Shown: positions 16,216 to 38,490, counted from the first letter of the stretch. The stretch is 53,738 nucleotides of DNA from an uncultured Candidatus Saccharibacteria bacterium (GCA_964446595.1 CAYUPY010000004.1:1-53738); one strand, 5' to 3'. Notes: generated from the sequence alone by a model not told the origin. A program made the numbers and translations.

Positions 16216-16222
16216 TTCAACG

Positions 16223-20208: not shown

Positions 20209-20565
20209 ATGTTGGTGAAAGATTACCTGTTAAATTTTTTTATTTGGTGGTATGTCGTGAGGTGCAGAGAGTTGGCTGGTAAATTAGTGCATAGATTCGT
20301 GTTTTTGCTTCAATACACTAACACTTTGCCAATGGCGCAGAACTTGGGGAAGCCACTTTATCAAGACGATTCTGGTATTGGAGTGATGATTGGTTTAGTT
20401 GTAAGAGGATTATGGGTTTGGATGGGAGGGATTGCAAGTGTAGTCCTAATTATCCCTTTTACTCTTGTTTTTCTGATTAACTTGCTTTTACCACTAGGCA
20501 TACTCATTATGTTTTTAATGGTAGCAATGACATCAATAGGGAGGGCTGCAATAGTTGGCGGATAA
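20209..20565 (+). CDS. Small membrane protein coupled to the Clp ATPase
   Basis: Hydrophobic 118 aa; TAATG overlap with the next gene. Confidence 0.75.
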   Translation: MLVKDYLLNFFIWWYVVRCRELAGKLVHRFVFLLQYTNTLPMAQNLGKPLYQDDSGIGVMIGLVVRGLWVWMGGIASVVLIIPFTLVFLINLLLPLGILIMFLMVAMTSIGRAAIVGG

Positions 20566-23117
20566 TGAAAGTTTTAAGAGATAAGCAAAAACTAGGACAA
20601 GTTGCAGAAACAGACATACATATTGATTGGGACAGACTTCTGAGTCACAAAGGGGCGCTGGCGCACAGGTTTGCGTCCGAAAAATTTTTCGGACGCGCAC
20701 TAAGGCATGTCTCGTACGCACTTTTTGGTGTGGCTGTAATTTTAGGGTTAATAAGTGGAGAGCTAAACTTATCTTCTTTTACAGGCGCTAATTGGGTCAT
20801 GAGTTTGTTGTTAGGGGCTGCAGCAACTATTAATGCATACGGTCAGTTTTTAGGACGCGATTTTCAGGACTTTGCATTCAATTTATCTAACAGAACAAAA
20901 CTGCGGCAAGTAGACTGGAATTATAAGCAGAAAGTCGAGGTAAATGATTTTATAGCCATATCGGTTTGGGAAGCAGTCGACAAAGCGTACTATCTAGACT
21001 CTGGGCAACAGTTTTTGCAGAACTTTGCCAAGGAGCTATTTGGCGCGCCTGGCGTGGTAGCCATGTTTGAGAGATTGGGAGTACATGACCAGGCGCGCCA
21101 GCACCTCATTGAAAGCGTATCTGTGCATAAGCAGGATCTGGCTGATCATACAGATTTGATACTAAATGCTTTACGGCTTAGTGCTGGATTGGAATCGGAA
21201 AATATTGAACCTGAAAATGTGGTTATAGTCATGTGGGAGAGTCTTTTGATAAGTGAGCTAGCAAGGCTCGGAGTAAATTTGGCGGAAATGAATGCAGTTA
21301 AAGCCTGGATACAGTTGAATAATCGCAAGTATCATTACCAGCAAATTTGGAAGCGGATGTCTTTAATCAAACCAAAAGGGACTGTTAATAGAGCCTATAC
21401 CTCTCGCTACGCACCGACTTTAGAGCAATTTGGAGAAGACTATACGTTAAGCGCCGCCACAGGTGAATTCTTGCTTTCCATAGGTAAGGAAGAGCAAATG
21501 CGCCTGTTAATGAGAACAATGCAGCAGGAGGAGGCCGCAACGCTAATAATCGGTAGGCCTGGAGTTGGTAAAACCCATTTTTTGAAATATTTGGCAGTGA
21601 GAATGGTGGTAGAGGATGTAGTTCCTGCAATGCGTGACCATAGGTTAGTTGCTTTTGATCTGAGTAAGGCTTTCACAACTAGTCAAAGCATTGAAAACTT
21701 TAAACAAGTGCTATTGAAAATGTTTGAGGAGGTAGCAGCATCAGGTGACATTATTTTAGTTCTAGATAATCTCGATTTAGCATTGGATGTGAGAGACGAT
21801 TTACAATCTGAAATTGTGAATCTAATAGATGGGGCGATTACAAAATACAAAATAAGAGTGATAGCTACGGCTAGTACAAATGGTTATAACCGCTTTATTA
21901 AAGCTCACCGTGGATTGTCGGGTAGATTTAAAGTGGTGGAGTTAATAGAGCCCGCGGCGGCTACGGCGTTACAAATTTTGGTGGACGAAGCCGCCGCAAT
22001 GGAGAAAAAGTCAGGGGTTAAGTTCGAGCTGCCTGCGTTGCGCGAGATCGTGAATTTGGCTACTAAATTTGATCACGACCGTGTTTTGCCTGACAAGGGT
22101 GTGGCTATTATGGAGGAAGCACTATTTGAAGCACAAGATAAAGAGCTAAATAGTGTCTCCAGACAAGTAGTTGATACAGTAATCTCCCGCAAAGTAGGTG
22201 TGTCCGTAGGTAAGTTGTCCGAATCAGAGGCTTCAAAGTTAATGAACTTAGAAAAAGAGTTACACGAACGAGTTGTCGGCCAAACACAGGCCATAAAAGC
22301 GGTTGCTAATGCTTTGCGTCGAGCGCGAGCTGGTCTGCAGAAGAGTGCTAAACCCGTAGCCTCATTCCTATTCTTCGGTCCCACAGGTGTGGGAAAAACT
22401 GAGGTGGCACGAACCCTAGCCGCTACCTACTATGGAGCAGAAAAACTAATGATACGCATAGATATGTCCGAATTCCAAGAATCAGACAACCTAAAACGTC
22501 TAATAGGCGCAGAGGAAAACGGCGAATTTATTGGTGGGCAGCTTACTGAAGCTGTAAGAAGTAAGCCATTCTCCTTAGTATTGTTCGATGAGGTTGAGAA
22601 GGCTAATCCAAAGGTTCTTGATCTTCTCCTACAGATTTTGGACGAGGGTCACATTACTGATGGTTTGGGTCGCAAAGTCGACTTTACTAACACGATCATC
22701 ATCCTCACTTCAAATGCCGGTTCTCGTAGCCTGGCAGAAAGAATAAGTAGGGGTGAAAGATATCACGAGGTCTACAGTGCAGTCTTGCCAGAATTAAGAA
22801 CTATTTTTAGGGTAGAATTTTTAAACAGATTTGACCAGATTATTATGTTTAAGCCTTTAACTCCAGTAGAAATCCAGCAAGTAGCAGATCAAATGTTGCA
22901 TAAATTACAGGATCAGTTACTAGAACAAGGTTATCATTTCACCTATACTAAAACTGTGCTGGAAGAACTTACAAAATTAGGCTACAGTGCCATTTACGGT
23001 GCTAGGCAAATGAGCCGTGCTATTCAAGAACACGTTGAAGATAAACTTGCAGCCGCTATCGTAAGTGGAAAGTTAACACCAGGTGGTACTTTTAGTTTAG
23101 AAAGCCTAGAGGGATGA
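20565..23117 (+). CDS. ClpA/B/C-family double AAA+ ATPase with N-terminal TM hairpin
   Basis: GRPGVGKT, LPDK, VVGQ..AI, FLFFGPTGVGKT, RIDMSEF, LFDEVEKA, EFLNRFD, YGARQM. Confidence 0.92.
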   Translation: MKVLRDKQKLGQVAETDIHIDWDRLLSHKGALAHRFASEKFFGRALRHVSYALFGVAVILGLISGELNLSSFTGANWVMSLLLGAAATINAYGQFLGRDFQDFAFNLSNRTKLRQVDWNYKQKVEVNDFIAISVWEAVDKAYYLDSGQQFLQNFAKELFGAPGVVAMFERLGVHDQARQHLIESVSVHKQDLADHTDLILNALRLSAGLESENIEPENVVIVMWESLLISELARLGVNLAEMNAVKAWIQLNNRKYHYQQIWKRMSLIKPKGTVNRAYTSRYAPTLEQFGEDYTLSAATGEFLLSIGKEEQMRLLMRTMQQEEAATLIIGRPGVGKTHFLKYLAVRMVVEDVVPAMRDHRLVAFDLSKAFTTSQSIENFKQVLLKMFEEVAASGDIILVLDNLDLALDVRDDLQSEIVNLIDGAITKYKIRVIATASTNGYNRFIKAHRGLSGRFKVVELIEPAAATALQILVDEAAAMEKKSGVKFELPALREIVNLATKFDHDRVLPDKGVAIMEEALFEAQDKELNSVSRQVVDTVISRKVGVSVGKLSESEASKLMNLEKELHERVVGQTQAIKAVANALRRARAGLQKSAKPVASFLFFGPTGVGKTEVARTLAATYYGAEKLMIRIDMSEFQESDNLKRLIGAEENGEFIGGQLTEAVRSKPFSLVLFDEVEKANPKVLDLLLQILDEGHITDGLGRKVDFTNTIIILTSNAGSRSLAERISRGERYHEVYSAVLPELRTIFRVEFLNRFDQIIMFKPLTPVEIQQVADQMLHKLQDQLLEQGYHFTYTKTVLEELTKLGYSAIYGARQMSRAIQEHVEDKLAAAIVSGKLTPGGTFSLESLEG

Positions 23118-24883
23118 AAAGATTAAAACTGCCAAATCTCCGAATATTTAAGTTGCTCACTTTGATACTTTTCGTGTTGGCGAGTGGTCTCATGGTAGTT
23201 CCTGCTTCTGCACAAAGACCGTTAAGTTGTGTTGGGGTTAACTTCAATGTAGATGGTGGTCAACAATGGGGTAGCTTAAGTGTACCACCCCCAGATTTTG
23301 GAGGTATTTTTGATGATCCAATTATTGTCCGCCCGGAGATTACTCTAGAGAATGCTGTGAATGTGCCGAGCATTGATCAAGTTCGTTTTTCTTATCGCAG
23401 AGAAGGTGCCGGTTGGGTACAATTGAACAATTTAGTATTCATCTATACTGGTGATTATGGAGCAGGTGCTAGCCGTTATGTGTCGCAAGGATTTAGTTTT
23501 CCGGTAGATATGCCAGGTCAATGGGAGTATACCATCGAATTCGAAGCTCAGGACATTACTCTTACTGGTACAGGTAATGGTTGCCCAACTTCTGCAAGCC
23601 CAACCATACCATTTACTGTAACTGCGGAAGAGTTAGACAATAGTGTTGTCGCTGCTGGTTGTGGGCGGTTAGAAAATGCAGGTTACGACGTGACTAATCG
23701 ATTTACATGTCAATACTTGAGCAATACTAGTAACAGTGGCTTTAGAGGAGAAGTAAAACAAACTAATTGTGGGCCGGGTTTTGTACCTGACCAAAAGGGT
23801 TGTGAAGTAGGTCGGAGCTTTTTCGGTGAAGATATAGAGGATGCCGGTTCAGTTAACTCTCAGTTCTGTATGAGTTGCATTACTCAAGAGCAGGCTAACT
23901 ATGTTGCGGCAGGTCATTTAGATGCCTGTGATATTAATGCTGAAACGCCATGCACCCAAGAACGTTCGCTTGAGTGTTTACCCACAGCAAGTGGAGATGT
24001 AGATATTAATGGAAATCCAGTGTCGCATCGGTGTTTGTACACTGAACCTATCTTATCCTCAGGATCACCTTGTTATACTAGGGCTGCCGAATGTGCCTCT
24101 AATTTAGGCTTTAACAGCTGCCAGAACCCAGCAGCAGGTACATATATAGGAGTATGTACTAACTCTGTAACTAGTCCAGAAGCTGATTGTGGCGATTATG
24201 ATGATCCAGATGAGTACTGTAAACAAAGACTAAATGCCGATAACGCGTATTGTCAGTTTTTAGTTGGGGCTTCACAGTGCGAAATCCGCGGGAGAGAAAC
24301 ACCGAGTAACGAAGATCCAAACGACCCTAACTCTCCTACAGGTATTACAAACTATGCCTATGCGTCTGACCAATTTGGAGTGATTAATTGTCCGTATTCT
24401 TTTCCCACTGTGTTACCCGAGTGGCTTGCAGAGTTGGTGGGTAGAGTAGGAATTAACTTGGGGCAACAGGCCTTGCGCCGACTTACACAGGAGGAAATTA
24501 CGGAGAGACGCAAGAATGATGAAAAGATTTACTTCATTGCTGATCCTGCTTCAAACCAGGACGAAAGGCGTGAATTCTACCAGTGTGCAAGCTGTATTGA
24601 TGACGGGGGTACTTGGACGGGTATTGGCTGTATTGTCACTACAATTGAGGGCCTTTTTAACTCATTATTAAGAATAATTCTAGGGGTAATGGGAGGGGTT
24701 GCCCTTATTAGGTTAATAATACTGGGATACCAGTATCAGTTTGCTGGTGAAGATAAAATCAAGCCCTCGGTACAAGATATCTTAGCCACCTTAGGAGGTT
24801 TGCTATTGGTACTATTTAGTGTGGTAATTCTGAGATTTATTGGTGTAAACCTCTTAGATATAGTGCCTCCTGGTTTCTTCTAA
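23114..24883 (+). CDS. Large Cys-rich secreted protein with C-terminal VirB2/TrbC-like pilin domain
   Basis: Signal ending ASA-Q; about 24 Cys; C-terminal two-TM GYQY..GEDKI..GGLLLVLFS. Confidence 0.75.
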   Translation: MKRLKLPNLRIFKLLTLILFVLASGLMVVPASAQRPLSCVGVNFNVDGGQQWGSLSVPPPDFGGIFDDPIIVRPEITLENAVNVPSIDQVRFSYRREGAGWVQLNNLVFIYTGDYGAGASRYVSQGFSFPVDMPGQWEYTIEFEAQDITLTGTGNGCPTSASPTIPFTVTAEELDNSVVAAGCGRLENAGYDVTNRFTCQYLSNTSNSGFRGEVKQTNCGPGFVPDQKGCEVGRSFFGEDIEDAGSVNSQFCMSCITQEQANYVAAGHLDACDINAETPCTQERSLECLPTASGDVDINGNPVSHRCLYTEPILSSGSPCYTRAAECASNLGFNSCQNPAAGTYIGVCTNSVTSPEADCGDYDDPDEYCKQRLNADNAYCQFLVGASQCEIRGRETPSNEDPNDPNSPTGITNYAYASDQFGVINCPYSFPTVLPEWLAELVGRVGINLGQQALRRLTQEEITERRKNDEKIYFIADPASNQDERREFYQCASCIDDGGTWTGIGCIVTTIEGLFNSLLRIILGVMGGVALIRLIILGYQYQFAGEDKIKPSVQDILATLGGLLLVLFSVVILRFIGVNLLDIVPPGFF

Positions 24884-24904
24884 TTTCTTAGGGTAATATG
24901 TACT

Positions 24905-25273
24905 ATGAAGAAAATATTTAACAAAGCAACCCTAGTCAGTATTTTTACATTTAGTGTAATGTTACTACCTGTATTTCCAGTATATGCGCAAATCCAGAAT
25001 CCAGTAGTATTTGATGACCTGACCGAGATAATAAATACTTACCTAGGGATTTTTAGGGTTATCGTAGTAATTATCTTCGTGGGTGTACTAGCAGGTGGAG
25101 GCTTTGTTTACTTAACTGCCGGATCAGATGAAGGCAAGGTGGCAAATGCTAAAAAGATGATAATTGCAGCTATCGTTGGTTTCGTAATTATCGTACTTGC
25201 TCCCGCAATTGTGCAATTCCTTGGTGCTTTACTTGGTGTTCAGGGTGGATTAGTTAATGATCTAAACAACTAG
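24905..25273 (+). CDS. VirB2/TrbC-like pilin (minimal; candidate major pilin)
   Basis: Signal VYA-Q; GGFVYLTAGSDEGKVANAKKMIIAAIVGFVII. Confidence 0.85.
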   Translation: MKKIFNKATLVSIFTFSVMLLPVFPVYAQIQNPVVFDDLTEIINTYLGIFRVIVVIIFVGVLAGGGFVYLTAGSDEGKVANAKKMIIAAIVGFVIIVLAPAIVQFLGALLGVQGGLVNDLNN

Positions 25274-25274
25274 A

Positions 25275-25907
25275 ATGCAAATGACAGGTAGAGTTACAAA
25301 AACTTTCAGCGTATTCATTATAGGTGCTGTGTTGTTTACCTTCTTCTTTTTGCCAGGAAAGGTAGAAGCTCAATATTATGATAGAGTATGTTGTGACCAA
25401 CCCATAGTAAATCCTCGTTGTGTATCTCTACAACTTTCTGGGCAGGTAAGTGATAACTGTGAAGAGCTATATTGTACTGTTGATCAGTATAATTGTGGGG
25501 CTAATGGACGCATCCCTGATGCCTTAGTAACTGGAGGTCCTTGTTCCATAGTGGAAGAGGATCTTACAAATTTAATTAATGTTAACTTCTTTGGGATTGA
25601 GTTGCGCTTTGATAGCGATAGAGCGATTCAACAGATTTTGTTAGTGGCATTTACCGGGTTTCTAGGAATTGCCGCACTAGTAGCAGTATTTGTAGGAATT
25701 ATTGCAGCTATCCAAAGAGCCACAGCTGACTCCGAAGATAAGATTGCTACTTCAACTAAGAGTATTCAGAATGCAGTAATCGGTTTTGTGATTATTATTT
25801 TGAGTTTAGTTATTGCCCAGGTCGTGGCTTCTGTAATAGGAGTTGGTTCAATTTTTAACATAGCAGCAGATAATATTTTACCTGAGCAGTCAGCAGAATG
25901 TCCTTAA
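25275..25907 (+). CDS. VirB2/TrbC-like pilin with Cys-rich N-domain
   Basis: Signal VEA-Q; ATADSEDKIATSTKSIQNAVIGFVII. Confidence 0.8.
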   Translation: MQMTGRVTKTFSVFIIGAVLFTFFFLPGKVEAQYYDRVCCDQPIVNPRCVSLQLSGQVSDNCEELYCTVDQYNCGANGRIPDALVTGGPCSIVEEDLTNLINVNFFGIELRFDSDRAIQQILLVAFTGFLGIAALVAVFVGIIAAIQRATADSEDKIATSTKSIQNAVIGFVIIILSLVIAQVVASVIGVGSIFNIAADNILPEQSAECP

Positions 25908-26626
25908 ATAGTGTTTCACTGAACAAATACATTAAGTCTGTAGTAGCCGCCATAGTCTTAATGGTCGTGGCTGCTGGCTATATGGGATTAGGACAGCAAG
26001 TACAGGCTCAGTCAATCACGCTGAATCCCGGGACCAATTGCGATAATGCTTCCGATAGTGCAGAGTGCAGGGAGATAGATGGATTAGGGGAAATTGAAAT
26101 TCCTATTTTTGTCTCGTTTGAATATATTCAAAATTTCAGTCCTTTTTCGTATATAGCTTTGGTATTAAATATTTTATTTGTAGCGGTTACTATACTATGG
26201 GTTGCCCTGGTTATTAAGGCAGGTGTCGATTATATCCGTAGTCAAGGCGATGAAGGGGCAATAACTGGGGCAAATAAGCAGATAGGTTCGGTATTTGCCT
26301 CTATTTCAATACTATTCGTTAGCTTCCTGTTAATTATTTTAGTGGGATATTTCTTAAACTTGGGTAACTTCTTTAATTGGCCCAGAGTGCTGAGTATTTG
26401 TGACGATGGAACTTTTTATATAACTAAGGCTTTGGAGCTGGAAGCAGACAATACTGGTGATGAACCTTTAAGTGATGAGTTCATAGGGCAAAGATGTTTT
26501 GGTGGCAATGGAAGCAGTACCCCGCCGCCAACTCGTCCGCGCACTCAAGCTGAGTGTCAGATTCAATGTAATAACGATCCTTTTTATGATGACTGTCTGA
26601 GTAGTTGTACTGGTTTAACGCGTTAA
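25898..26626 (+). CDS. VirB2/TrbC-like pilin with Cys-rich C-terminal extension
   Basis: Signal VQA-Q; AGVDYIRSQGDEGAITGANKQI. Confidence 0.8.
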   Translation: MSLNSVSLNKYIKSVVAAIVLMVVAAGYMGLGQQVQAQSITLNPGTNCDNASDSAECREIDGLGEIEIPIFVSFEYIQNFSPFSYIALVLNILFVAVTILWVALVIKAGVDYIRSQGDEGAITGANKQIGSVFASISILFVSFLLIILVGYFLNLGNFFNWPRVLSICDDGTFYITKALELEADNTGDEPLSDEFIGQRCFGGNGSSTPPPTRPRTQAECQIQCNNDPFYDDCLSSCTGLTR

Positions 26627-26684
26627 TTACTTGCCCTTTACACTAATATCTTGTAAACTTAATAAACTACTTTAGTATAAACAT

Positions 26685-27209
26685 ATGAAGCATCTACGAA
26701 AAATTTTTTTGACCGTTGTTTTAACAATAACAACATTTGGTTTTTTCATAGTACCTCAGCCAGTTGAGGCTCAACTAAGTGTTTGCGATTTTGCTGGACC
26801 AATTTGTGAAGCCATAGGGATTGAGGAGTCACAAAGCTCAGAGCAAAACCAGGCTAGCGTAATTAACTTTTTGCGTTCTCGTGTCAGCCTAATTTTAGGA
26901 GTGCTATTTGTTGGTATTGTAATCCTCGCAGTTTTCATCATTATTTCTGCTGGTGTTAAATACATTCAAAGTCAGGGAGAAGAAGGTAAAATTGAAGAGG
27001 CTAATAAAGCAATTAAAAATGTGTTTATTGGTCTTGCAATACTAATAGTAGGTGTCGTTGGTGTGTTTATTGTGCTAATTTTCCTAGACGCCTTTAACCT
27101 AACTGGGTTAGGGAATTCTGCAGAACAAGCTTGTATTGAAGAATGTGAAACAACAGGAGGTTCATCTTCTACCGTTTTCCAATGTATAGAAGCCTGCGGT
27201 AATTTATAA
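26685..27209 (+). CDS. VirB2/TrbC-like pilin with CxxxC...CxxxC tail
   Basis: Signal VEA-Q; AGVKYIQSQGEEGKIEEANKAIKNVFIGLAI. Confidence 0.82.
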   Translation: MKHLRKIFLTVVLTITTFGFFIVPQPVEAQLSVCDFAGPICEAIGIEESQSSEQNQASVINFLRSRVSLILGVLFVGIVILAVFIIISAGVKYIQSQGEEGKIEEANKAIKNVFIGLAILIVGVVGVFIVLIFLDAFNLTGLGNSAEQACIEECETTGGSSSTVFQCIEACGNL

Positions 27210-27219
27210 GGAGGTAACC

Positions 27220-27777
27220 TTGAAGTTAGTAGTTACAACTACAATTTTTTCATTAACACTATTCGGGCTGCTAACGCAGCCCGTTTTTGCACAGGGTTTT
27301 GGTTCTGACGTTAGCAACTATGACTGTGCAAGATTTAATGGTGATAGTGGAGTTCTAACCGAAAAGCCAGACGGATCAATAGTTTGTGTTTACGGTGACC
27401 TGACATCAGGCGATGTAGTAGAGCGTCCAGCTATCCTTAAACCTCCACGTTTGCAGATTTTGCAAATCTGGTTTGTACGCTTAATTTACGTAATTTGGGG
27501 AGTATCGGGTGTTGTGTTTACTTTCATTCTAATTTCAATTGGGTTGCAGTATATTTTATCTTTTGGGAATATTGATGCTGTGGGGCAAGTAATTAAGAGG
27601 TTTCAGAAGTTTGTAGTTGGGCTAGCATTAGTTTTTTTGTCTTACCCCTTACTGGCGACTTTTTTCAATCTACTACCTCTAAGAGATGACACCTGCTATA
27701 GCGATATAAATATGCCCGGTTTTCAGTTCTTTTTCCCTAGTGCCTGCATAGTCGAAGAACAACCTACAACCCCATAG
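27220..27777 (+). CDS. VirB2/TrbC-like pilin
   Basis: TTG start with AAGGAGG SD; signal VFA-Q; IGLQYILSFGN..FVVGLALVFLSY. Confidence 0.78.
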   Translation: MKLVVTTTIFSLTLFGLLTQPVFAQGFGSDVSNYDCARFNGDSGVLTEKPDGSIVCVYGDLTSGDVVERPAILKPPRLQILQIWFVRLIYVIWGVSGVVFTFILISIGLQYILSFGNIDAVGQVIKRFQKFVVGLALVFLSYPLLATFFNLLPLRDDTCYSDINMPGFQFFFPSACIVEEQPTTP

Positions 27778-29622: not shown

Positions 29623-31404
29623 ATGCGTTCAAAACTTAATCTGCTCAAAAAACACGCACTGATTTTTTTCGCCTTTCTGGTTCTCGCAACTGCTGTGGTG
29701 CCACTGCAAGCCGTCTCTGCTTCCCCAGCTGATGAAATTAGAGAGAGAATCAAACAAGAAGAAGAAAAGTTAGCTAAAACTCAAAAAGAATTAAGCGATG
29801 CAGAGAAAAAGTTAGCTGGCTTAGAAGGTGAATTAAATTCCGTACAAGGGGAACTTCCTAGATTAGAACTTGAGATTGAAAAGCTAGAAACCCAAATTGC
29901 TTATAATAAGCTACAGATGCAAATCCTGGCTGAGAGTGAGCAGGTAACAAAATTGGTAAAGCAGGATCAAGAGACTGTGAGAAAGCAATTGCTACAATCT
30001 GCTTACTCCAATTGGAAGTTGCAAGCAGATGTGAATAGATTTATGCCGGTGGCCGAGGGTGTAAATAGCTTAAAAGAAGTCCATTATCAAACTAGATTAA
30101 TCTCAGGACAGAACAATACAATTAGTGAGCTACAGGCCAATATTGAGGAATTGGTGGCAGATATTGAGGATTTCCGCGAAAATACGGTCGGTTTGGAAAA
30201 GCGAAACAAGGAGTTAAAGGAGAAGAAGAAAGAAGTCCTTGCCCAAATTGCGGCTATAAGGGGATCGGTTGATTCTGCTGTAGGTGTGGTAGCAGGTCTG
30301 CAGAGTAATAGGCAAAGTATTGAACAAGAAATTAGTCAGTTAAATGCAAGACAGAAGGCAATTGAGGAAGAAGAGGCTCGAAAAACGGAAGAATCTAATC
30401 AAAGTAATCAGCAAGTAGAGATAGCAAGTGGTGAGTTTTATTTTGAGTCATACGGCAGAGATCTTTATCAAGGGCATGGAGTAGGTATGTCTCAGTATGG
30501 GGCGAAAGGTATGGCTGCGGCGGGCAAGCAGGCAGAGGAAATTGTTACTTTCTACTTCAAAAACACGACAATTGGGACTACCAATAGTAGTGTTAATGTT
30601 CAGGGCTACGGCTCGATGTCCGCAGACGACTACGTAGCTGGTCTAGGAGAAGTGCCAGACAAAGCCTGTGGAACAACAGCTCAAGCGGCCGAGAATCCAG
30701 CAAAATATGTTCCCGATAACCCCAATACGATTTGGGATTGTTGGCCTGAGGAGGCGATTAAGGCTCAAGTAATTGCAGCGAGAACTTACGCTGTGGACTA
30801 CAATCGCCGTTATGGCAGAGCAATTTGTACCACTGCTGCTTGTCAGGTATATGCAGGTGGAAATGGTAAGCGTTGGGCCGCACAGGAAACTGCTGGAAAG
30901 GTAATCCTCTATAATGGACAAGTTATAGAAGCTCTTTATTCTTCAGATAATAATCAGGGATTTGGTACAGCCAACAACGATACTAGGTGGTCTAACTTTA
31001 GTGGTGATGGAACCGCCGTGCCTTATTTAAGGCATGTTAATGACACGGCTTATTCCCAAGGTCCCTACACGAATTTCCGCGCTGTAACTGATGGGTTTAA
31101 AATGGGGGATGTAAAAAAGATGTTACATTATAGAGACCCAAGCTCTAGTCTTAACGGGAACGGCGCATATACCTTCTTTAATGGAATTCTGAGTGAGGTT
31201 GGGAACATTGCCAATCTGGAGTTTGCCCGTGATCCATCCCAAAGAGTGAAAAAAGTGGTGGTAGTAGGTGAAAATGGTGCGAGAAGAACAATAGCAGGAT
31301 GGCTATTTAAATCTGCATGGAATGATTGGGTTTATGGAACCAAGGCTGCCAACCAGAGAGACTACATCTACAGTCAGACCTTCTTTATGCGTCAGAAAAA
31401 TTAG
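29623..31404 (+). CDS. Secreted coiled-coil + SpoIID/LytB-domain peptidoglycan lytic enzyme
   Basis: Signal peptide, PcsB-like coiled coil, GHGVGMSQYGAKGMA, LGEVP, EAIKAQVIAARTYA, CTTAACQVY, PYL. Confidence 0.88.
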   Translation: MRSKLNLLKKHALIFFAFLVLATAVVPLQAVSASPADEIRERIKQEEEKLAKTQKELSDAEKKLAGLEGELNSVQGELPRLELEIEKLETQIAYNKLQMQILAESEQVTKLVKQDQETVRKQLLQSAYSNWKLQADVNRFMPVAEGVNSLKEVHYQTRLISGQNNTISELQANIEELVADIEDFRENTVGLEKRNKELKEKKKEVLAQIAAIRGSVDSAVGVVAGLQSNRQSIEQEISQLNARQKAIEEEEARKTEESNQSNQQVEIASGEFYFESYGRDLYQGHGVGMSQYGAKGMAAAGKQAEEIVTFYFKNTTIGTTNSSVNVQGYGSMSADDYVAGLGEVPDKACGTTAQAAENPAKYVPDNPNTIWDCWPEEAIKAQVIAARTYAVDYNRRYGRAICTTAACQVYAGGNGKRWAAQETAGKVILYNGQVIEALYSSDNNQGFGTANNDTRWSNFSGDGTAVPYLRHVNDTAYSQGPYTNFRAVTDGFKMGDVKKMLHYRDPSSSLNGNGAYTFFNGILSEVGNIANLEFARDPSQRVKKVVVVGENGARRTIAGWLFKSAWNDWVYGTKAANQRDYIYSQTFFMRQKN

Positions 31405-31451
31405 CACTTTTATGTTATAATTCGATATATAAGCGCATCTATAGTCACTAC

Positions 31452-32105
31452 ATGGCAGAAGTAAAAAATTCCCCGGTTCTTTCTCGCCAGGAATGGGAAA
31501 AATTGAAGCAGCAAGAAGCAATTGACGATATTATTGAAAAGGAAGAAGGTTCTGATTGGCGAGGTTTAGTGTTCAAGCCTCACAATGTTTACTTTAGTAC
31601 TCAAAACAGAGGCGAGCAGGTATATATTCTGTTAAGGAAGCATTTTATTACTAATTTTGGCTGGATTAGCAGTACTGCAATATATAGTACGTTCCCTTTA
31701 ATTTTGGGGTTGGTTTTAACGCTTTTTAGAGTGGATCTTTTTGGGTTATTTGGGTTTAGGTTGGTATTTATATTATTAGCTGTATATTACTCAGTATTGT
31801 TGACAGGAGCGATTAGAAACTTTGTTAATTGGTACTTTAATCTATACATTGTCACAAACGAGCGAGTAATGGACTACAGGTTTAGAGCTTTCATTTCTAA
31901 ATCTGTAGCGGAATCGCCCTTAGAAGCATTACAAGATGTGAGAGAAATTAGCGTAGGATTCTTACCTAGTTTATTAAATTACGGGGATGTATCAATGTAC
32001 AGTGCAGCTGATAAGACTGTTATTACGTTCAACGATGTTCCGAATCCTTCTTTAGTGAGGGATAAGATTTCAGATTTAGCTAAGATTGCCAAGAACAATA
32101 ATTAA
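31452..32105 (+). CDS. Membrane protein with bacterial PH (bPH_2)-like domain
   Basis: LRKHFI, two TM, WYFNLYIVTNERV, LLNYGDV, FNDVPNP. Start moved to ATG 31452 to avoid overlap with the upstream gene. Confidence 0.78.
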   Translation: MAEVKNSPVLSRQEWEKLKQQEAIDDIIEKEEGSDWRGLVFKPHNVYFSTQNRGEQVYILLRKHFITNFGWISSTAIYSTFPLILGLVLTLFRVDLFGLFGFRLVFILLAVYYSVLLTGAIRNFVNWYFNLYIVTNERVMDYRFRAFISKSVAESPLEALQDVREISVGFLPSLLNYGDVSMYSAADKTVITFNDVPNPSLVRDKISDLAKIAKNNN

Positions 32106-32106
32106 T

Positions 32107-32343
32107 ATGATAGCTAACTTACCAGAATTTGGAGCACTGATCGGTGAAGAAATGTTTCTTTTCATAAAGGTGGTGGCTGCCATTTTAGCCATGGTGCATT
32201 TGTTGATAGGTCTGGTACTATTCCAACAAATAGCTGCTGTTAATAGGATGATACATGCACCACACGGTAGGATTGTTACAGCTGTCGGACTCGTGCACAT
32301 TTTGTTATTAACCGCTATACTGTTATTGATAGTTTTTTATTAA
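32107..32343 (+). CDS. Small two-TM hypothetical protein
   Basis: Hydrophobic, fills the gap in the operon; ATG just after the upstream stop. Confidence 0.7.
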   Translation: MIANLPEFGALIGEEMFLFIKVVAAILAMVHLLIGLVLFQQIAAVNRMIHAPHGRIVTAVGLVHILLLTAILLLIVFY

Positions 32344-32358
32344 ACTGTTCTGCCTTTT

Positions 32359-34818
32359 ATGCACAAGATTGACACCGACTACAAAGTGGGGAGTCCAACC
32401 GCCCGATCTTGGGCCGGTATTTATGGCTATCGCCCCGAAAACCTTCTAGAGGATGAAGAAGCAGGTATGTTGCTTGCCACGATTAGTATGGGGAGTGAGA
32501 TCGACTTTGATTTAGCTAATATTGCGGCTTTATTACAAGATGAACTCCAAGACAAATACTATAGTGCGGCCAAAACTGCTCCTAGCAATATAGCAGCGCT
32601 GGAAACTGCTCTTAAGGCTATGCGAACAAGGTTAGAAGATATTCTACACCGAGAACCAGAGTTAGCTAAAACAGGAATAGACTTAGAAATAGCCGTGGTA
32701 GTGATCAAAGATAACTTGCTTTGTGCGGCAGTTGTAGGAGAGTCTAAAATATATGTTCGTCGAGGAGATGAAATGCATGAGATATCCAACGCACTAATTG
32801 ATCCCGACCTTAGTGGTTATATGTTCACAGGTAGCTTACAACTTCAGGAAGATGATCGTGTTCTCCTTTCCACACATAAAGTTCCACAGCATAACTCTTT
32901 AAAGGCTCTGGAAGAACAAATGGGTGGTTTTTCAATACAAAATTTGGCAGTAAAAGGAGGAGCAGCTTTATTGGCTGGTTATGAGCTAAACTGGGAAGAG
33001 ATTGAGGCAGTAGAACTTGCAGTAAGAGAGGCTGAAGAGGCCGAACAGATGGCCATACAGCGTCGCCAGGAGATTATAGATGCACAGCAAAAACAAGCAG
33101 CACTTCTAGAGGGGAAAGAAGAGGAGACTGAAATATATACGCCCGAGACACAAATTATTCCGGTAACTCCAGACCAGGCTGAGGTTGAACCACAAGACCT
33201 AGAAATTGAAGTTACCACAGCAGAGATTGAGCGTGAAGACCGTGAAACAAGATTTTCCGATCATGAAAAAAGTGTTCCACCCAAGGAAAAAGTGGAAAAA
33301 AGAGACTATATTGGTGAGGCACGGGAGCGTTTGGCCCCAGCCCTGCTTGCAACGCGTGAAACGGCAGGTAATTTGTTCCAAACAGTTAAGGAAAAGAGTT
33401 TTGAATTACGCACACAGCTGCAAGAGTCGGGTATTCTGGAAACATTAGCTAAAAATATTAAAGAATTCCTCCAAAAGGCAAAAGAAGTGGCCCAAGGAGT
33501 GTATCAAAACCTAGCTAACGGACAACCCGGTGATCGGTATAGTAGAAGGATACCAGTGCGGGGAGGACGTGGTGGCGGCGGCCTAATTGGCCGTATACAG
33601 GGCGTTATAGCAGGGAACGGTGGTAATCAGCGAAGTAGGTACCTAATTGCCGCCGCTGCCATCCTGGTTGTAGTAATAGGCGTGGGAATCAATCGCTCAT
33701 TAGAAGCACGGAGAATTCAAACCGAAATAGATCAGCTAACGGAACAAACAGAAAGTCTAGAATCACAATTTGTAGAAATAAGAGCAAACGCAACTGCCGC
33801 TGCATTAAGTAATGATCCGAATCGAAGAGGCGAGGTGTTAGGAGCTTTGGACGATCTGCGCGGTGATTTAGATTCATTACAGGCTAATGAACTTATCACT
33901 GAGGATTTGCAAGCTCGTTTAAGTGACATAATGGCTGAGACCTCTACTGCAGAAGACCAGGCATTGAAAATCAGATCATTTACTCAACCAGCATTAATTA
34001 CAGACCTAGCTACTGAATTTCAAGACGTAGAAGCAAGCGGCGTTGCAAGTAGTGGTAGTCAAATTTTTGTGACAGACAAAGGTAGAGATGTTGTTTACAG
34101 CCTTACCAATAACTTGGGCAGTCAGGTAGAGATCCTAAACGATGATCTAGTTGAGCCATATCTAATTCAAACAACACCAGACGGCAACCTTGTAGTATTT
34201 GACCGAAATGAGGAAAGCGTAATCGCAAACATTAACGCTGATTCTGGTGAGCTAACCAGACAGATAGGTCTTTCGCCTGAATCCCAAGGGGAAGTAACCA
34301 CAATGGATGTTTGGTCAAATGGATTCTTATACGCAATTAGTCCTGAGAGACAGGCCCTCGTAAGACAACCAGATGTTTCGGGTTCTTTCCAAATTCCTGA
34401 CTACAATAATCCATGGAGAAGAGATCCGGATTTTGGAAGGGCTGTGGACATGGTGGTAGACTATTGGATTTACGTAATTATAGACGGGCAAGGGTTAAAG
34501 CGCTATTTAAGTGGAGAACCAAGCCCAGTAACTATCCAAGGCTTACTACCTGAAGATAAGGCTGCGCTGACTAATGCAACTGCTGTAGCAGCTACTGAAA
34601 GGAGAATTTATGTTGCCGATCCAAATAATAGACGCATTATCTCTTTTGTAAAGGATTTAAATGACGAAAATTTAATCCTATATGAAGGACAGTACAAATA
34701 TAGAGGTGACTCAAATGTGTTCGCAGAGATTTCAGATATAGTAGTAACTGATAGTGAAAACCAGATAATTGTGCTTGATGGCAATCGGGTGATTCGATTA
34801 GACGTAGCTACTTTCTAA
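32359..34818 (+). CDS. Single-pass protein: degenerate PP2C-like domain, helical linker, TM, coiled coil, NHL-like beta-propeller
   Basis: AAVVGESKIYVRRG, LQEDDRVLLST; C-terminal IFVTD, IYVADPNNRRI, IIVLDGNRV blades. Confidence 0.7.
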   Translation: MHKIDTDYKVGSPTARSWAGIYGYRPENLLEDEEAGMLLATISMGSEIDFDLANIAALLQDELQDKYYSAAKTAPSNIAALETALKAMRTRLEDILHREPELAKTGIDLEIAVVVIKDNLLCAAVVGESKIYVRRGDEMHEISNALIDPDLSGYMFTGSLQLQEDDRVLLSTHKVPQHNSLKALEEQMGGFSIQNLAVKGGAALLAGYELNWEEIEAVELAVREAEEAEQMAIQRRQEIIDAQQKQAALLEGKEEETEIYTPETQIIPVTPDQAEVEPQDLEIEVTTAEIEREDRETRFSDHEKSVPPKEKVEKRDYIGEARERLAPALLATRETAGNLFQTVKEKSFELRTQLQESGILETLAKNIKEFLQKAKEVAQGVYQNLANGQPGDRYSRRIPVRGGRGGGGLIGRIQGVIAGNGGNQRSRYLIAAAAILVVVIGVGINRSLEARRIQTEIDQLTEQTESLESQFVEIRANATAAALSNDPNRRGEVLGALDDLRGDLDSLQANELITEDLQARLSDIMAETSTAEDQALKIRSFTQPALITDLATEFQDVEASGVASSGSQIFVTDKGRDVVYSLTNNLGSQVEILNDDLVEPYLIQTTPDGNLVVFDRNEESVIANINADSGELTRQIGLSPESQGEVTTMDVWSNGFLYAISPERQALVRQPDVSGSFQIPDYNNPWRRDPDFGRAVDMVVDYWIYVIIDGQGLKRYLSGEPSPVTIQGLLPEDKAALTNATAVAATERRIYVADPNNRRIISFVKDLNDENLILYEGQYKYRGDSNVFAEISDIVVTDSENQIIVLDGNRVIRLDVATF

Positions 34819-34854
34819 TAAAAACTTTACATCCCATGCTAAACTAACGCCATT

Positions 34855-35310
34855 ATGGCGCAGACGCTTTTCTCAAACAAAAGGGCCCTACATGATTATA
34901 AGGTTGTCGAGCAGCTGGAGGTAGGTATTGCTTTACAAGGGTGGGAAGTAAAATCTCTAAAACAAGGTATGGCAGACTTAAGGGGAGCCTTTGTAATATC
35001 AGATTTAAATGGTAACCTGGTTTTGAAAAATGCCAATATTCCAGCCTGGAAGACCGGTTTGCCCAAAAAGGACGAAGAGAAAAAACGAGATCGACTGTTA
35101 CTTTTACATAAAAGAGAACTAAAGAAATTTGCGGGACTATTAATGAGGCCAGGGTATACTGCAATACCTGCGAGTTTCTATGTTAACAATAGAGGGTTAG
35201 TTAAAATGCAGCTAGCAATAGTGACAGGTAAAAAGAAATATGAGAAGAAACAGGTCGCAAAAGAGAAAGACTTGCGCCGCAGACAACAGCGGGAACTAAA
35301 AGGGTGGTAA
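34855..35310 (+). CDS. smpB: SsrA-binding protein SmpB
   Basis: NKRALHDY, GIALQGWEVKSL, RLLLLHKRE, GKKKYEK. Confidence 0.96.
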   Translation: MAQTLFSNKRALHDYKVVEQLEVGIALQGWEVKSLKQGMADLRGAFVISDLNGNLVLKNANIPAWKTGLPKKDEEKKRDRLLLLHKRELKKFAGLLMRPGYTAIPASFYVNNRGLVKMQLAIVTGKKKYEKKQVAKEKDLRRRQQRELKGW

Positions 35311-35366
35311 AATAAATTACATAATATATACCAAAATTGTCGTATATATTTATGCTATAATATAAA

Positions 35367-35972
35367 GTGATGCAATCTCAGCAGCAACAAAACCAAAATT
35401 CAAATCCCCAAGTTCAAAGCTGGTCGTCGGCAATGGTTGCAGGCCAGGGTATACCCCAGCCCAGCGGTACTGACGAAAATGGACAGCCTTACTGGATAGT
35501 AAATGATCGCCGCATTAGCTGGCAGCAAATGCAGCAATATATCTGGCAAGCTCGGCAGCAGGTGCAAGCTCAAATGGGCAGCGGAGGCGGCGGGTTTGAA
35601 TCAATGCCTGCAATGCCTTCTGCACAACATTTTGAGCACTATGGTCAGCCAGAAACAAGTGTTGAAACAATTAAAGGACTAGATCGTAAAATAGAATCTC
35701 CAGAAAGTGGACTAGAAACAAAAGCTGAGCAACTCGGAAATCAAAATACCTCGACTCAGGCACAGAACACTAAACCTGAAAAACCAAAAATGGATTCAGT
35801 GCTAGGGCAGTCTGCGGAACTAAAAACTGTACGCGCAGATGACCTTGATTCTATGAAAAACTTCTATCAAGCAAATAACCAAAATCCTGGGAAAGGACAA
35901 GACTTGGCGGACACCTATTTGGCAGAGTTATTTGGTAAAATATTGCGTCGCCTAATTTACGTAGGTCGTTAA
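35367..35972 (+). CDS. Gln-rich, largely disordered hypothetical protein
   Basis: 201 aa ORF, TGnTATAAT 5 nt upstream of GTG; 16 nt upstream of the VirD4-like gene. Confidence 0.7.
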   Translation: MMQSQQQQNQNSNPQVQSWSSAMVAGQGIPQPSGTDENGQPYWIVNDRRISWQQMQQYIWQARQQVQAQMGSGGGGFESMPAMPSAQHFEHYGQPETSVETIKGLDRKIESPESGLETKAEQLGNQNTSTQAQNTKPEKPKMDSVLGQSAELKTVRADDLDSMKNFYQANNQNPGKGQDLADTYLAELFGKILRRLIYVGR

Positions 35973-35988
35973 GGGCCTGTATATACAA

Positions 35989-38490
35989 ATGCTTGAAAAC
36001 ACATTCTCAATTATTCTAATTGGCTGTACTGTCTCGGCCGTACTATTAGTAGTTGCGGCATTCTTTGCATGGAAAATCTGGAAAGCTTTTCTTGACGGAG
36101 TGAAGGAAACGGCAATGACCCAAAAAGCATTAGGTGTAACAATCTTTGAGATCAAAGTGCCTCAGAACAACGATATTGATATAAAGCAGGCAGATCAGAT
36201 GTTTTCTGGGTTCCTAGGAGTGGGAGATAAGTTTAAAGGGTTTCAAAAGTACACAAAAGCACGCAAATTTATTAGCTGCGAAATAGTCGCGTTTAAGGAC
36301 AACATTAAGTTTTATGTCTCCTGTCCGAATGAAATCGCAACCCTAGTAGACCGACAAATAAACGGCGCATACCCGAGTGCAGAAGTGATTGAGGTGAAAG
36401 AGTACAATATCTTTACAGAGGGGGCGGAAGTAGCCTCTGCACAGCTGAAACTGGACAAAGAGAGTATGATCCCGATTCGGACATATGAAGAGTTAGCGTC
36501 CGATACGATGGCCACTTTGACAGATGCGATGAGTAAATTACGTGAAGGTGAGTCTGCGGCGTTCCAAATGGTGATTTCGCCTGCGGGCACCGATTGGCGC
36601 AATGATGCTAAGAAGCTGGTGAAGGATGCCCGCAAACCAGGAGATGAAGGCAAAGAAAATCCATTAGCTAAAAAGTATCCAGATGAAATTTTATCAAGTA
36701 TAGATAAAAAGGCTGAGAAGAGCGGATTCTATACAGATTTACGGCTGGTGGTAGTGTCACCTGCAAAAGAGTTAGCCAAAGAGCATTTGCAGAATATGCT
36801 TAGTGCTTTCGATCAGTACACCAAAGAATCCGGAAATAGAATAAAGAAAGATGAATTGCCGAAGACTTTTGTAAAAGATTTTATTTATCGCTTTCCTCGC
36901 GAAACGATGATTCTAAATACCGCAGAGTTAGCAACTATTTTCCATTTCCCCAATAAAAATATTGAGACACCGCACATTCAGTGGCTGCTTTCCCGAGATG
37001 CACCAGCTGCTGATTTTGTAACTAAGAAATATGAAGAGGGAAGGATGTATCTTGGAAAAAATATCTATCGTGGGCAGAAGAAGGATATTTTTATGTTACC
37101 TGAAGATAGATTAAGACACACATACGTAATTGGGCAAACTGGTACAGGTAAATCCAAGTTTTTGGTAGGGCAAACGGTGCGAGATATTCATGCGGGAAGA
37201 GGAGTATGCTTTATTGATCCGCACGGTTCAGATGTAGAAATGATTCTAAAAAATGTGCCTGCTCATAGAGTGGAAGACGTCATCTATTTTGACCCATCAG
37301 ATACGGAAAGGCCAATCGGTCTGAATATGATGGAATTTGTAAATCCCGATCAGAAAACTTTCGTAATCAACGAAATGTTAAATATTTTTGACAAGCTGTA
37401 CGATCTAAAGGCTACTGGAGGGCCAATCTTTGAGCAGTACATGCGTAACTCTATGTTGTTATTGATGGAAGACGTAGAGTCAGGAAACACATTAATGGAA
37501 ATTTCCCGCGTGTTAGCCGATGAAGAATACCGTAAATACAAACTATCTAAGGCTACTAACCCTGAAGTAGTCCATTTCTGGGAGAAACAGGCTGAAAAAG
37601 CGGGAGGAGAAGCGGCTTTGCAGAACGTTGTTCCTTACATCACATCCAAACTGACATCTTTTGTGGCAAATGACACTATGCGTCCTATTATTGCCCAACA
37701 GAAGTCGACCATTGATTTCCGATGGGCTATGGATAATGAAAAGATTATTCTCGTAAATCTATCTAAGGGTAGAATTGGCGAAATGAATGCTTATCTATTA
37801 GGAATGGTAATAGTTGGTAAGTTATTGGCAGCAGCGCTTAGTCGTGAAGATACTGATGAGGCTTTACGTAAGACCTTTTACCTGTACATTGATGAGTTTC
37901 AAAACTTTCTAACCGATAGTATTGTAACTATTCTATCTGAAGCACGTAAGTACCGTCTATCGTTAAATATCGCCCATCAGTTCTTGGGACAGCTAAAAAC
38001 TAAAGGGGGGGATACTAAAATTAGAGATTCAATCTTTGGTAATGTGGGTACTAAAGTAGTCTTCCGTGTTGGTATTGAAGACGCGGAAGTGTTTAAGAAA
38101 GAATTCGATCCGCTTTTCACACCAGAAGACATTGCACAACAACCAAACTTACATGCTTATGTAAAACTATTAGTTGATGGTAAATATCCGCCACCATTTT
38201 CGCTTTACACCCATTTTGACTATAGTCCATTCTCAGAGATAAGCTTTGCTACCGGTGATGATGAAATGGCAAGGACTATCAAGCAAATTTCTCGCCTACG
38301 TTTTGGTCGAGACAGGGATATTGTGGAAAAAGAGATTAGGCAGAGAGCTAAAAATAAGCTTGAGGTTAAGAAAGATGATAATTCTGGTGGATTTGGAGGA
38401 CTTGGAAGTCTGTTCGGTGGAGGCGGGGGAAGTAGTGCGCCACCTTCAGGCAAATTTAGTGGCAAACCACCAGGATTTGGAGGAATGTAG
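35989..38490 (+). CDS. VirD4/TraD-like type IV secretion coupling ATPase (HerA/FtsK superfamily)
   Basis: N-terminal TM; RHTYVIGQTGTGKS, FIDPHG, LYIDEFQNF, LSEARKYRL..AHQ, IFGNVGT..FRVG. Confidence 0.9.
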   Translation: MLENTFSIILIGCTVSAVLLVVAAFFAWKIWKAFLDGVKETAMTQKALGVTIFEIKVPQNNDIDIKQADQMFSGFLGVGDKFKGFQKYTKARKFISCEIVAFKDNIKFYVSCPNEIATLVDRQINGAYPSAEVIEVKEYNIFTEGAEVASAQLKLDKESMIPIRTYEELASDTMATLTDAMSKLREGESAAFQMVISPAGTDWRNDAKKLVKDARKPGDEGKENPLAKKYPDEILSSIDKKAEKSGFYTDLRLVVVSPAKELAKEHLQNMLSAFDQYTKESGNRIKKDELPKTFVKDFIYRFPRETMILNTAELATIFHFPNKNIETPHIQWLLSRDAPAADFVTKKYEEGRMYLGKNIYRGQKKDIFMLPEDRLRHTYVIGQTGTGKSKFLVGQTVRDIHAGRGVCFIDPHGSDVEMILKNVPAHRVEDVIYFDPSDTERPIGLNMMEFVNPDQKTFVINEMLNIFDKLYDLKATGGPIFEQYMRNSMLLLMEDVESGNTLMEISRVLADEEYRKYKLSKATNPEVVHFWEKQAEKAGGEAALQNVVPYITSKLTSFVANDTMRPIIAQQKSTIDFRWAMDNEKIILVNLSKGRIGEMNAYLLGMVIVGKLLAAALSREDTDEALRKTFYLYIDEFQNFLTDSIVTILSEARKYRLSLNIAHQFLGQLKTKGGDTKIRDSIFGNVGTKVVFRVGIEDAEVFKKEFDPLFTPEDIAQQPNLHAYVKLLVDGKYPPPFSLYTHFDYSPFSEISFATGDDEMARTIKQISRLRFGRDRDIVEKEIRQRAKNKLEVKKDDNSGGFGGLGSLFGGGGGSSAPPSGKFSGKPPGFGGM

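Follow-up and report, generated by a model that had tools for sequence, protein, structure and literature searches.

Positions 20209-38490 of a 53,738-nt stretch of DNA from an uncultured Candidatus Saccharibacteria bacterium (GCA_964446595.1, CAYUPY010000004.1:1-53738; this whole stretch is called the window) are tentatively explained here as the filament-and-wall half of a Patescibacteria-type, i.e. monoderm and relaxase-less, type IV secretion system (T4SS), whose core lies on another contig, C24, and whose parts in the window form three modules within an old synteny block. We favour this reading while giving it somewhat less than an even chance. The region consists of three genetically separable modules: M1 contains a small membrane protein (TM118), a transmembrane (TM) Clp ATPase (TM-Clp), g03 and five pilin paralogues; M2 contains g09, a SpoIID protein, a bPH protein, a DUF5657 protein and g13, with smpB travelling along; and M3 is the ATPase g16. 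A first-pass annotation of the window, made by a model from the DNA alone, had proposed a single apparatus. In favour of that idea, gene order is conserved, TM-Clp always accompanies the pilins and a family beyond the class (f20) links M2 to pilins and a T4SS core, but the modules are separable, SpoIID is relocated in some relatives and the flanks are equally syntenic.

As that annotation had also described, the ~18 kb form a tight + strand run: based on the ORF coordinates, 16 open reading frames (ORFs) follow each other with intergenic gaps of at most 61 nt, several of them overlapping. The - strand ORFs inside 20209-38490 are short shadows of the + strand genes. Family searches (Pfam, NCBIfam) matched its gene list almost item by item, as follows:

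g01 (TM118), 20209..20565, +: small, two hydrophobic helices; its stop codon overlaps the start of g02
g02 (TM-Clp), 20565..23117, +: 850 aa, two-ring Clp/Hsp100 ATPase with an N-terminal TM hairpin
g03, 23114..24883, +: 589 aa, secreted, 24 cysteines, C-terminal VirB2-like two-helix pilin module
g04, 24905..25273, +: short VirB2-like pilin (T4SS_pilin)
g05, 25275..25907, +: pilin, N-terminal domain with 8 cysteines
g06, 25898..26626, +: pilin paralogue with a Cys-rich C-terminal extension
g07, 26685..27209, +: pilin paralogue
g08, 27220..27777, +: pilin paralogue, last member of the array
g09, 27839..29593, +: coiled coil and central hydrophobic segment; first gene of M2
g10, 29623..31404, +: membrane-anchored coiled-coil stalk and SpoIID/LytB peptidoglycan-hydrolase domain
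g11, 31326..32105, +: bPH domain and two hydrophobic helices; likely start 31452
g12, 32086..32343, +: small membrane protein of the DUF5657 family
g13, 32359..34818, +: 819 aa; PP2C fold, disordered linker, TM helix, helical stalk, six-bladed NHL propeller
smpB, 34855..35310, +: tmRNA partner
g15, 35367..35972, +: Gln-rich, low complexity
g16, 35989..38490, +: single-TM, two-domain P-loop ATPase of the VirB4/VirD4/HerA clade

Conservation of gene order

Conserved order had been named beforehand as a test of the proposed apparatus, and conservation was found at both levels compared. When the 20 kb upstream of g16 were examined in 20 genomes of the same taxonomic order (order-level loci), g01, g02, g04, g08, g11, g13, smpB and g16 occurred in the same order in 20/20, with SpoIID inside the cluster in 15/20. 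Of 20 loci drawn from 15 further families of the class, 14 have the order pilins...SpoIID-bPH-g13-smpB-g16, all in one direction; one of the remaining loci is split over two contigs and five have g16 alone or with a pilin only.

Beyond the class, the full SpoIID-bPH-(DUF5657)-g13-smpB module recurs in the genomes G087, G113 and G085. The last two belong to family f20 and are complete genomes of 0.8 Mb, in which M2 adjoins, in divergent orientation, a g03-like gene and an array of seven pilins. The pilins are followed by three proteins without a family, a PrgI-like protein, a protein like the 227-aa protein of C24 described below (c24_227-like), VirB4, a CHAP protein and dnaN. Of all observations, this divergent arrangement, where pilins and SpoIID are neighbours and the T4SS core adjoins them, argues most strongly against M2 being only a bystander.

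The pilin array and the T4SS core

The presence of six VirB2-like pilins was borne out. Two of them, g04 (PF18895, 4.4e-14, 52.7 bits; TrbC, 7e-07) and g05 (PF18895, 5.4e-09, 36.4 bits), lie above the PF18895 cut-off of 26.6 bits, and g07 (1.7e-04, 22.0 bits) and g08 (3.5e-03, 17.8 bits) match the same family below it. For g06, which has no Pfam match, paralogy to g07 (blastp 1e-13 to 1e-14) and VirB2-type helices were found, and hhalign relates the last ~110 residues of g03 (TrbC, 0.023) to the g04 family (97.7%, E 1.8e-12). According to a hydropathy scan, all six have a signal-type N-terminus followed by two hydrophobic helices. This array holds the only PF18895 matches of the genome.

The paralogues are old, ordered and differentiated. 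Their order, g04-g05-g06-g07(-g07)-g08, does not vary among the 20/20 order-level loci, nor in families f5, f8, f9, f10, f13, f14 and f16, as assigned across families with hidden Markov models (HMMs) built from best hits; g04 is the first pilin of the array in all relatives, and an orthologue of g08 is present in all 20 order-level loci. In families f3, f4, f6, f7, f11, f15 and f17 the arrays contain only g04-like pilins. For the pilin arrays of Patescibacteria, antigenic or host-range variation has been suggested (PMC12102498). The fixed paralogue order found here fits distinct structural roles better.

The pilins are of the kind published for the Patescibacteria T4SS, which has a VirB4 clade derived from MPF_FATA, arrays of VirB2-like pilins and almost never a relaxase (PMC12102498). 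According to the same source, homologues of the type IV coupling protein (T4CP) are mostly far from virB4, with only 148/5,713 near it, and VirB6 is scarce in Microgenomatia, which is attributed to divergence. In Southlakia, the one genetically tractable Patescibacterium (PMC10633639), epibiotic growth requires both the T4SS (SEML1_0006-0019) and its pilin array (PMC10633639, PMC12857230). We are confident that the pilins of the window belong to a T4SS.

The core of such a system was located elsewhere in the genome (1.22 Mb, 93% complete), as the first-pass annotation had advised checking, with both VirB4 and PrgI on contig C24. At C24:8755-16051 (L039) the order is greA, a 410-aa PrgI-like protein, a 227-aa protein, VirB4 (710 aa) and three proteins of 391, 271 and 192 aa without a family. 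VirB4 (C24:11219-13351) matches TIGR00929 (7e-39) below the curated cut-off and P-loop_TraG (2e-24) above its cut-off, as well as AAA_10 and DUF87; a search with the VirB4 model PF03135 gave no match. The PrgI-like protein reaches 28 bits with PF12666 (cut-off 27) as a six-frame match and 24.6 bits, below that cut-off, as the called ORF C24:9277-10509; it joins a PrgI/VirB3-like N-terminus to Ig-like or CarboxypepD_reg-like C-terminal parts. The 227-aa protein is conserved beside VirB4 in other families. VirB4 itself is present in 61/61 class genomes and, in the complete ones, lies far from the g16 cluster.

The window had been described as free of relaxase, VirB4 and VirB6, which agrees with the searches: VirB4 is not in the window, and neither PF03432, the only relaxase family searched (0 matches), nor PF04610 (TrbL/VirB6) has a match in the 93%-complete genome. 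Between the pilins and PrgI-VirB4 of f20, large proteins without a Pfam match are encoded (L174 of G113, 3659-10761; L175 of G085, 11219-17624), in G113 of ~850, ~580 and, on the opposite strand, ~920 aa; these are candidates for the missing VirB6/VirB8-type channel parts.

Like the Patescibacteria T4SS (Quinonero-Coronel et al. 2025; Wang et al. 2023), the genes found here are chromosomal and relaxase-less, with VirB4 and a PrgI/VirB3-like protein. Unlike in that system, the pilins are far from virB4, with a membrane Clp on one side and a SpoIID-bPH-PP2C/NHL module on the other. This separation of the filament genes from the VirB4 core amounts to a second architecture; in G079, G069, G051 and at locus L071, VirB4 has one pilin or a short array as its neighbour. 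The kind of T4SS, pilin arrays and remote T4CPs have already been published; the link of Clp and TM118 to pilins, M2 beside pilins and the fixed paralogue order are described here and were not found in print. Clp, SpoIID and smpB are not mentioned in the main text of PMC12102498, nor is Clp in that of PMC10633639.

Locus L071 (G056:C1:786000-805990) is a second T4SS-like cluster and may be a mobile or duplicated system; besides two pilins and a c24_227-like protein it encodes paralogues of g16 (8e-149) and of VirB4, the latter with 42% identity to the C24 VirB4.

Two other possibilities were discarded. The Pam pilus, a filament specific to the Candidate Phyla Radiation (CPR) and reported from Saccharimonadia and Microgenomatia, is built from Ig-like pilins by donor-strand exchange (PMC13278184), as opposed to the two-helix VirB2 type of this array. 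Genome G038 was considered as a natural pilin-less knockout and dropped, as the orthologue profile and local HMMs found a five-gene array in it (L173, G038:C1:688000-707990, at 7750-10344 on the - strand) that PF18895 misses at E <= 0.001. Since PF18895 misses divergent arrays, counts of 'pilin-less' CPR genomes based on this family only are too high.

TM118 and the membrane-anchored Clp

Directly ahead of the pilins stand TM118 and TM-Clp, together a new candidate assembly factor and the newest element of the locus. TM118 has no match in Pfam or NCBIfam and belongs to no known family; its orthologue is directly upstream of TM-Clp in 22/22 TM-Clp loci, and also in L070. TM-Clp matches AAA_2 (1.2e-49) and ClpB_D2-small (7e-20), with the curated ClpB, ClpA and ClpV models all far below their cut-offs. 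It is the third Clp paralogue of the genome, the other two (on C1 and C34) having 29-32% identity to it.

Based on hydropathy and an alignment of the N-domain, residues ~45-105 of TM-Clp form a TM hairpin, followed by a helical region. In a protein-language atlas this region lies near Clp_N-bearing fragments with a score of 0.93, to be taken as a lead only; Clp_N is annotated on 11-17% of the members of the nearest clusters. Like the class I Clp/Hsp100 proteins (ClpB, ClpA/ClpC, ClpV), TM-Clp has two AAA+ modules, AAA_2, D2-small and intact D2 Walker motifs. Unlike these, it has the TM hairpin, no KYR in D1, a variable D1 Walker B and GNF/GEF in D2. Among 22 orthologues, Walker A of D1 is kept in all, with a variable Walker B (DN in g02), both Walker motifs of D2 are intact in all, and the D1 KYR pore loop is absent from all, the D2 GYVG being replaced by G-N/E-F/Y. 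Both chromosomal Clp paralogues retain the canonical pore-loop motifs. ClpV of the type VI secretion system is soluble and remodels a sheath.

The N-domain is rare: its profile recovered 94 representative clusters only among 1.84 billion proteins, with full-length members of 830-870 aa, and a homologue search with it gave five proteins, none of them named. A related-locus search with g02, for which the patterns were derived from conserved AAA motifs, gave only generic ClpB/ClpC of other phyla and no match over the N-domain. A predicted complex of TM118 and the g02 N-domain scored 0.57 against 0.00 for the best control, with at least 89% contact agreement between runs and a partner pLDDT (predicted local distance difference test) of at least 75. 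In calibration, the mark applied was reached by 58/80 solved complexes and 2/110 mismatched pairs, scores of 0.60 or below being held by only 7 of the 80 solved complexes and by both mismatches that passed, so that 0.57 speaks weakly for contact.

Within the class, the TM-Clp N-domain occurs in 21/61 genomes, all of families f1, f2, f5, f9, f13 and f14. The pair stands directly ahead of the pilins in 20/20 order-level loci as well as in L043, L049 and L070, and by coordinates TM-Clp is directly upstream of pilins also in G003, G009, G066, G071 and G076. Wherever contigs permit checking, no case of TM-Clp apart from a pilin array was found. In the window, two unrelated genes separate groEL from TM118-TM-Clp, and in L070 groEL is not within 5 kb; in both, TM-Clp still abuts the pilins. 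TM-Clp is confined to families with the differentiated g04-g08 array, a coincidence that may reflect a single event because the relatives are not independent.

From this association it is possible, though short of probable, that TM-Clp acts on pilins. The more specific idea, that TM-Clp and TM118 form a dedicated dislocase or recycling motor for a filament of five differentiated VirB2 paralogues, is rather unlikely as it stands. If true, this would give a type IV secretion pilus its own Clp-type AAA+ motor, for which there would be no precedent; TM-Clp would take over pilin extraction from VirB4, to which this step is ascribed in classical systems, and the SpoIID/PP2C-NHL module would be a sensor-gated wall gate. 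No Hsp100 linked to a T4SS pilus is known to us, and a literature search on membrane-anchored Hsp100 proteins with pilins found nothing relevant.

The putative wall and sensor module and smpB

M2 starts with g09, which has orthologues in 17/20 order-level loci and lies beside SpoIID in L060 and L069. It has no significant family in Pfam or NCBIfam, and an atlas search gave only scores of 0.76-0.78, valueless as a lead. It had been called SMC-like: it is indeed a coiled-coil membrane protein, but no SMC head domain was matched.

The next protein, g10, matches TIGR02669 (1.9e-36, 126.4 bits; cut-off 83.3) and SpoIID PF08486 (3.7e-12, 47.1 bits; cut-off 23). It looks like a putative hydrolase switched from the membrane, because its stalk and the coiled coil of an EnvC-like M23 protein, encoded beside FtsX on contig C40, are paralogues. 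Like the EnvC/PcsB-type regulators governed by FtsEX, g10 has a coiled-coil stalk preceding a wall-hydrolase module; unlike them, its module is SpoIID rather than M23/CHAP, and its neighbours are bPH, DUF5657 and PP2C/NHL proteins, not FtsEX. In the literature searched, no paper pairs SpoIID with 'Patescibacteria' or 'Candidate Phyla Radiation'. On C40 (L172 2279-3541, - strand; C40:10614-10994), the EnvC-like coiled-coil M23 peptidase directly follows FtsX, so a canonical FtsEX-type hydrolase switch is present besides the stalked SpoIID.

The protein g11, probably starting at the ATG at 31452, matches bPH_2 (0.0037); bPH_2 is found in 11/22 members of its family and bPH_3 in 9/22. The small g12 matches PF18901 (DUF5657; 1.2e-05) above cut-off and is retained after bPH in L060, L152 and L175.

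The description of g13 as a pseudo-PP2C/propeller receptor was upheld for the PP2C fold and the NHL propeller, but its pseudo status is likely and unproven. An AlphaFold2 (AF2) model of g13 has a pLDDT of 79.6, with ~90 for the N-domain, and Foldseek aligned the propeller with the PknD sensor 1rwi (1.4e-9) and the PP2C domain with tPphA 2j82 (5.5e-9, TMt 0.66) and PstP 1txo (5.8e-9). The model predicts a cytoplasmic PP2C domain and an external propeller. With the PP2C fold inside the cell, the six-bladed NHL propeller outside and a single TM helix between them, g13 resembles mycobacterial PstP and PknD; it differs from these in having both halves fused and in matching no PP2C sequence model, neither in Pfam nor when the family profile was compared with PDB sequences. 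By eye, the family consensus also appears to lack the PP2C metal-binding motifs (DG.GG and the SDG-type Asp-Gly). A pseudo-phosphatase is likely on these two grounds.

The assignment of smpB is clear (PF01668, 9.8e-41, 139.5 bits; cut-off 27). As it lies within 5 kb of g13 in 9/20 other-family loci, it is probably an old g13 neighbour and hitch-hiker, not part of any apparatus, in line with the earlier remark that smpB in the run need not belong. That M2 serves the pilus or the T4SS is a fair possibility, but we would not call it probable.

The ATPase g16 and g15

The ATPase had been described as VirD4-like. It is a T4SS-clade ATPase: g16 passes two T4CP Pfam families, TraG-D_C (2.3e-07, 31.2 vs 22 bits) and T4SS-DNA_transf (5e-05, 22.8 vs 20.1 bits), and belongs to the VirB4/VirD4 clade, but its structure shows no preference for TrwB over VirB4. 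In an AF2 model (pLDDT 74), the ATPase domain fits two structures equally well, namely 4ag5, the VirB4 C-terminal domain (Z 29.9, rmsd, i.e. root-mean-square deviation, 3.2, 343 residues), and TrwB (Z 28.5). The best alignment of the whole chain is with TrwK/VirB4 over residues 45-767, with an rmsd of 15.5 A. Curated T4CP and VirB4 models of NCBIfam score far below cut-off (for T4CP, TraD 43.8 vs 366; CD1115 39 vs 250), and a search against PDB sequences gave nothing significant (best IcmO/DotL, E 0.12). Like VirD4/TrwB and VirB4/TrwK, g16 has an ATPase domain that fits both folds; unlike VirD4/TrwB, it has one TM helix and an N-domain of ~300 residues before the ATPase, a VirB4-like two-domain layout. 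It is present in 61/61 class genomes, with an orthologue in 31/31 relatives. That g16 works with the same channel as the pilins is conceivable and held with less than even confidence. A second T4CP-like gene in the genome is cut by the end of contig C62. The neighbouring g15 has no family match, and its orthologues were found only in the same-family relatives L004 and L005.

Proposed function and alternatives

In the favoured explanation, the pilins would enter the membrane via Sec and be polymerised by the VirB4 machine encoded on C24. A TM-Clp hexamer, anchored in the membrane through its own hairpin and probably also through TM118, might pull pilins from the bilayer for assembly, recycling or quality control, a motor that the pilin module would have acquired in part of the class. 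M2 would be a gated wall-opening and sensing unit that serves the pilus where adjacent and is also kept alone, and g16 might energise substrate transfer. M2 and M3 are old neighbours that may cooperate with M1 and are not tied to it. Host contact and feeding would be putative roles of such an apparatus.

The closest competitor, ranked only slightly below this explanation and judged possible, is synteny without shared function: only the pilins would be T4SS parts, with M2, TM-Clp/TM118 and g16 independent of them in a frozen region. M2 would then be an ordinary growth or division wall module with a PstP/PknD-like TM regulator, TM-Clp and TM118 would provide membrane-protein quality control beside GroES/GroEL, and g16 would be an independent translocase. 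A good part of the data weighs on this side and against our preferred explanation. The flanks, used as a control, match the cluster in degree of synteny: groEL immediately precedes g01 in 16/20 order-level and six class-level loci, and after g16, tRNA-Ile(TAT), xer and ftsH follow in 16/16 and divIC in 14/16 order-level genomes. Because these housekeeping flanks are equally conserved, order does not set the 16 genes apart. The region is rich in division and wall genes (ftsA, divIC, ftsH, yceG), to which the kinship of the g10 stalk with the EnvC-like protein beside FtsX may be added, and since TM-Clp follows groEL in most genomes, a general chaperone role also fits. Scans for promoters (40 promoter-like sites vs 44.3 +/- 7.5 expected) and terminators (12 terminator-like sites vs 14.6 +/- 4.4 expected) gave nothing above chance and are uninformative. 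Among listed sequencing runs, one of DNA, a microbial-mat metagenome, was found to contain the organism's sequence, and none of RNA. As a caution, long housekeeping blocks are frozen in these reduced genomes, and conserved order alone is not equivalent to an operon-level functional unit.

The modules also come apart. In the 5/20 order-level relatives without SpoIID in the cluster, an orthologous SpoIID of ~610-640 aa is encoded away from it. In families f10, f11 and f15, SpoIID-bPH-(DUF5657)-g13-smpB is intact, with the pilin array elsewhere and g16 elsewhere again; in G038 (f10) the pilins are at 698 kb, M2 at 282-291 kb, g16 at 491 kb and VirB4 at 517 kb. The T4SS cluster of f20 carries its own CHAP hydrolase. 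At the level of the phylum, g13 and VirB4 are phyletically independent: the g13 family was found in 127/151 genomes and VirB4 in 145/151, all six VirB4-negative genomes have g13, and families f24 and f27 have g13 in 0/10 genomes and VirB4 in all (tallies that include the unpublished genome G226, on which alone no claim is made). Beyond the class, g13 lies within ~7 kb of mltG/yceG in 8/20 other-family loci, and g16 is beside g13 in 0/20. Against frozen synteny, however, TM-Clp is parted from groEL in the window and in L070 and never from the pilins, it is restricted to families with a differentiated pilin array, and f20 has a second, divergent SpoIID-pilin adjacency contiguous with PrgI-VirB4.

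Considerably less probable, indeed improbable, is the proposal of the first-pass annotation that all genes but smpB form one obligate, non-conjugative host-contact or feeding machine. It agrees with the order kept in 20/20 order-level and 14/20 class-level loci, with near-universality in the class (g16 and VirB4, 61/61 each; pilins, 60/61 by PF18895 plus the one missed genome) and with a genome in which no relaxase (PF03432) was matched. Since all parts are core in the class, co-occurrence cannot discriminate, and the separable modules, the relocated SpoIID, the independent profiles of g13 and VirB4 and the linkage of g16 in this class only all speak against it.

We consider DNA import of the Ced type, in which the pilins capture DNA and g16 imports it as a source of nucleotides for an auxotrophic cell, very improbable. 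Here g16 offers its place in the FtsK/HerA/VirD4 clade and a weak CedD match (3.7e-04, far below cut-off), and the lack of a PF03432 match in the genome is again compatible; no CedA- or CedB-type partner turned up, no search having been aimed at them. Southlakia lacking comEC is reported to be viable though no longer competent, the T4SS being essential, which argues against import as the essential role in that relative (PMC12857230).

An origin from a conjugative or integrative mobile element, be it as remnant or as cargo, might be suggested by the VirB2-like pilins, the T4CP-like ATPase and, just downstream, a tRNA followed by a tyrosine recombinase gene. It was rejected as almost certainly wrong: the GC content is even over the whole window (0.38-0.45), the tRNA-Ile-xer-divIC-ftsH context recurs in 16/16 relatives, and the genes are core in 61/61 class genomes with no relaxase match (PF03432).

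Flanking genes and minor observations

Both flanks consist of housekeeping genes, with yceG, yidC, jag, L25, ftsA and groES/EL upstream and tRNA-Ile, a Xer-type recombinase, divIC, ftsH and polA downstream. Directly after ftsA, u683 (14127-16178, +) encodes 683 aa without a family. The arrangement ftsA-u683-groES-groEL is kept in many relatives, and u683 adjoins ftsA in G038 and G048, a conserved protein of no known family among division genes.

Directly upstream of g01, at 19018-20181 (+), lies a gene whose 387-aa product ends in an OmpR-type winged helix (Trans_reg_C, 2e-09) and has an AAA-like match that is weak. As it is found upstream of the cluster in 0/20 relatives, this gene and an opposite-strand gene of 192 aa represent a genome-specific insertion between groEL and the cluster.

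Downstream, tRNA-Ile(TAT) (38563-38637) is followed by the Xer-type tyrosine recombinase (38818-39675, -). Both occupy the same place in 16/16 order-level relatives, and the recombinase is therefore a chromosomal Xer and not an integrated element. A genome-encoded UAU isoleucine tRNA is unusual among bacteria. After ftsH, a DUF5648 protein (1.3e-35) is encoded at 45293-46453 (+). The window ends with tRNA-Ile(GAT) and tRNA-Ala(TGC) at 52636-52853, an arrangement that we take to be typical of an rRNA operon spacer.

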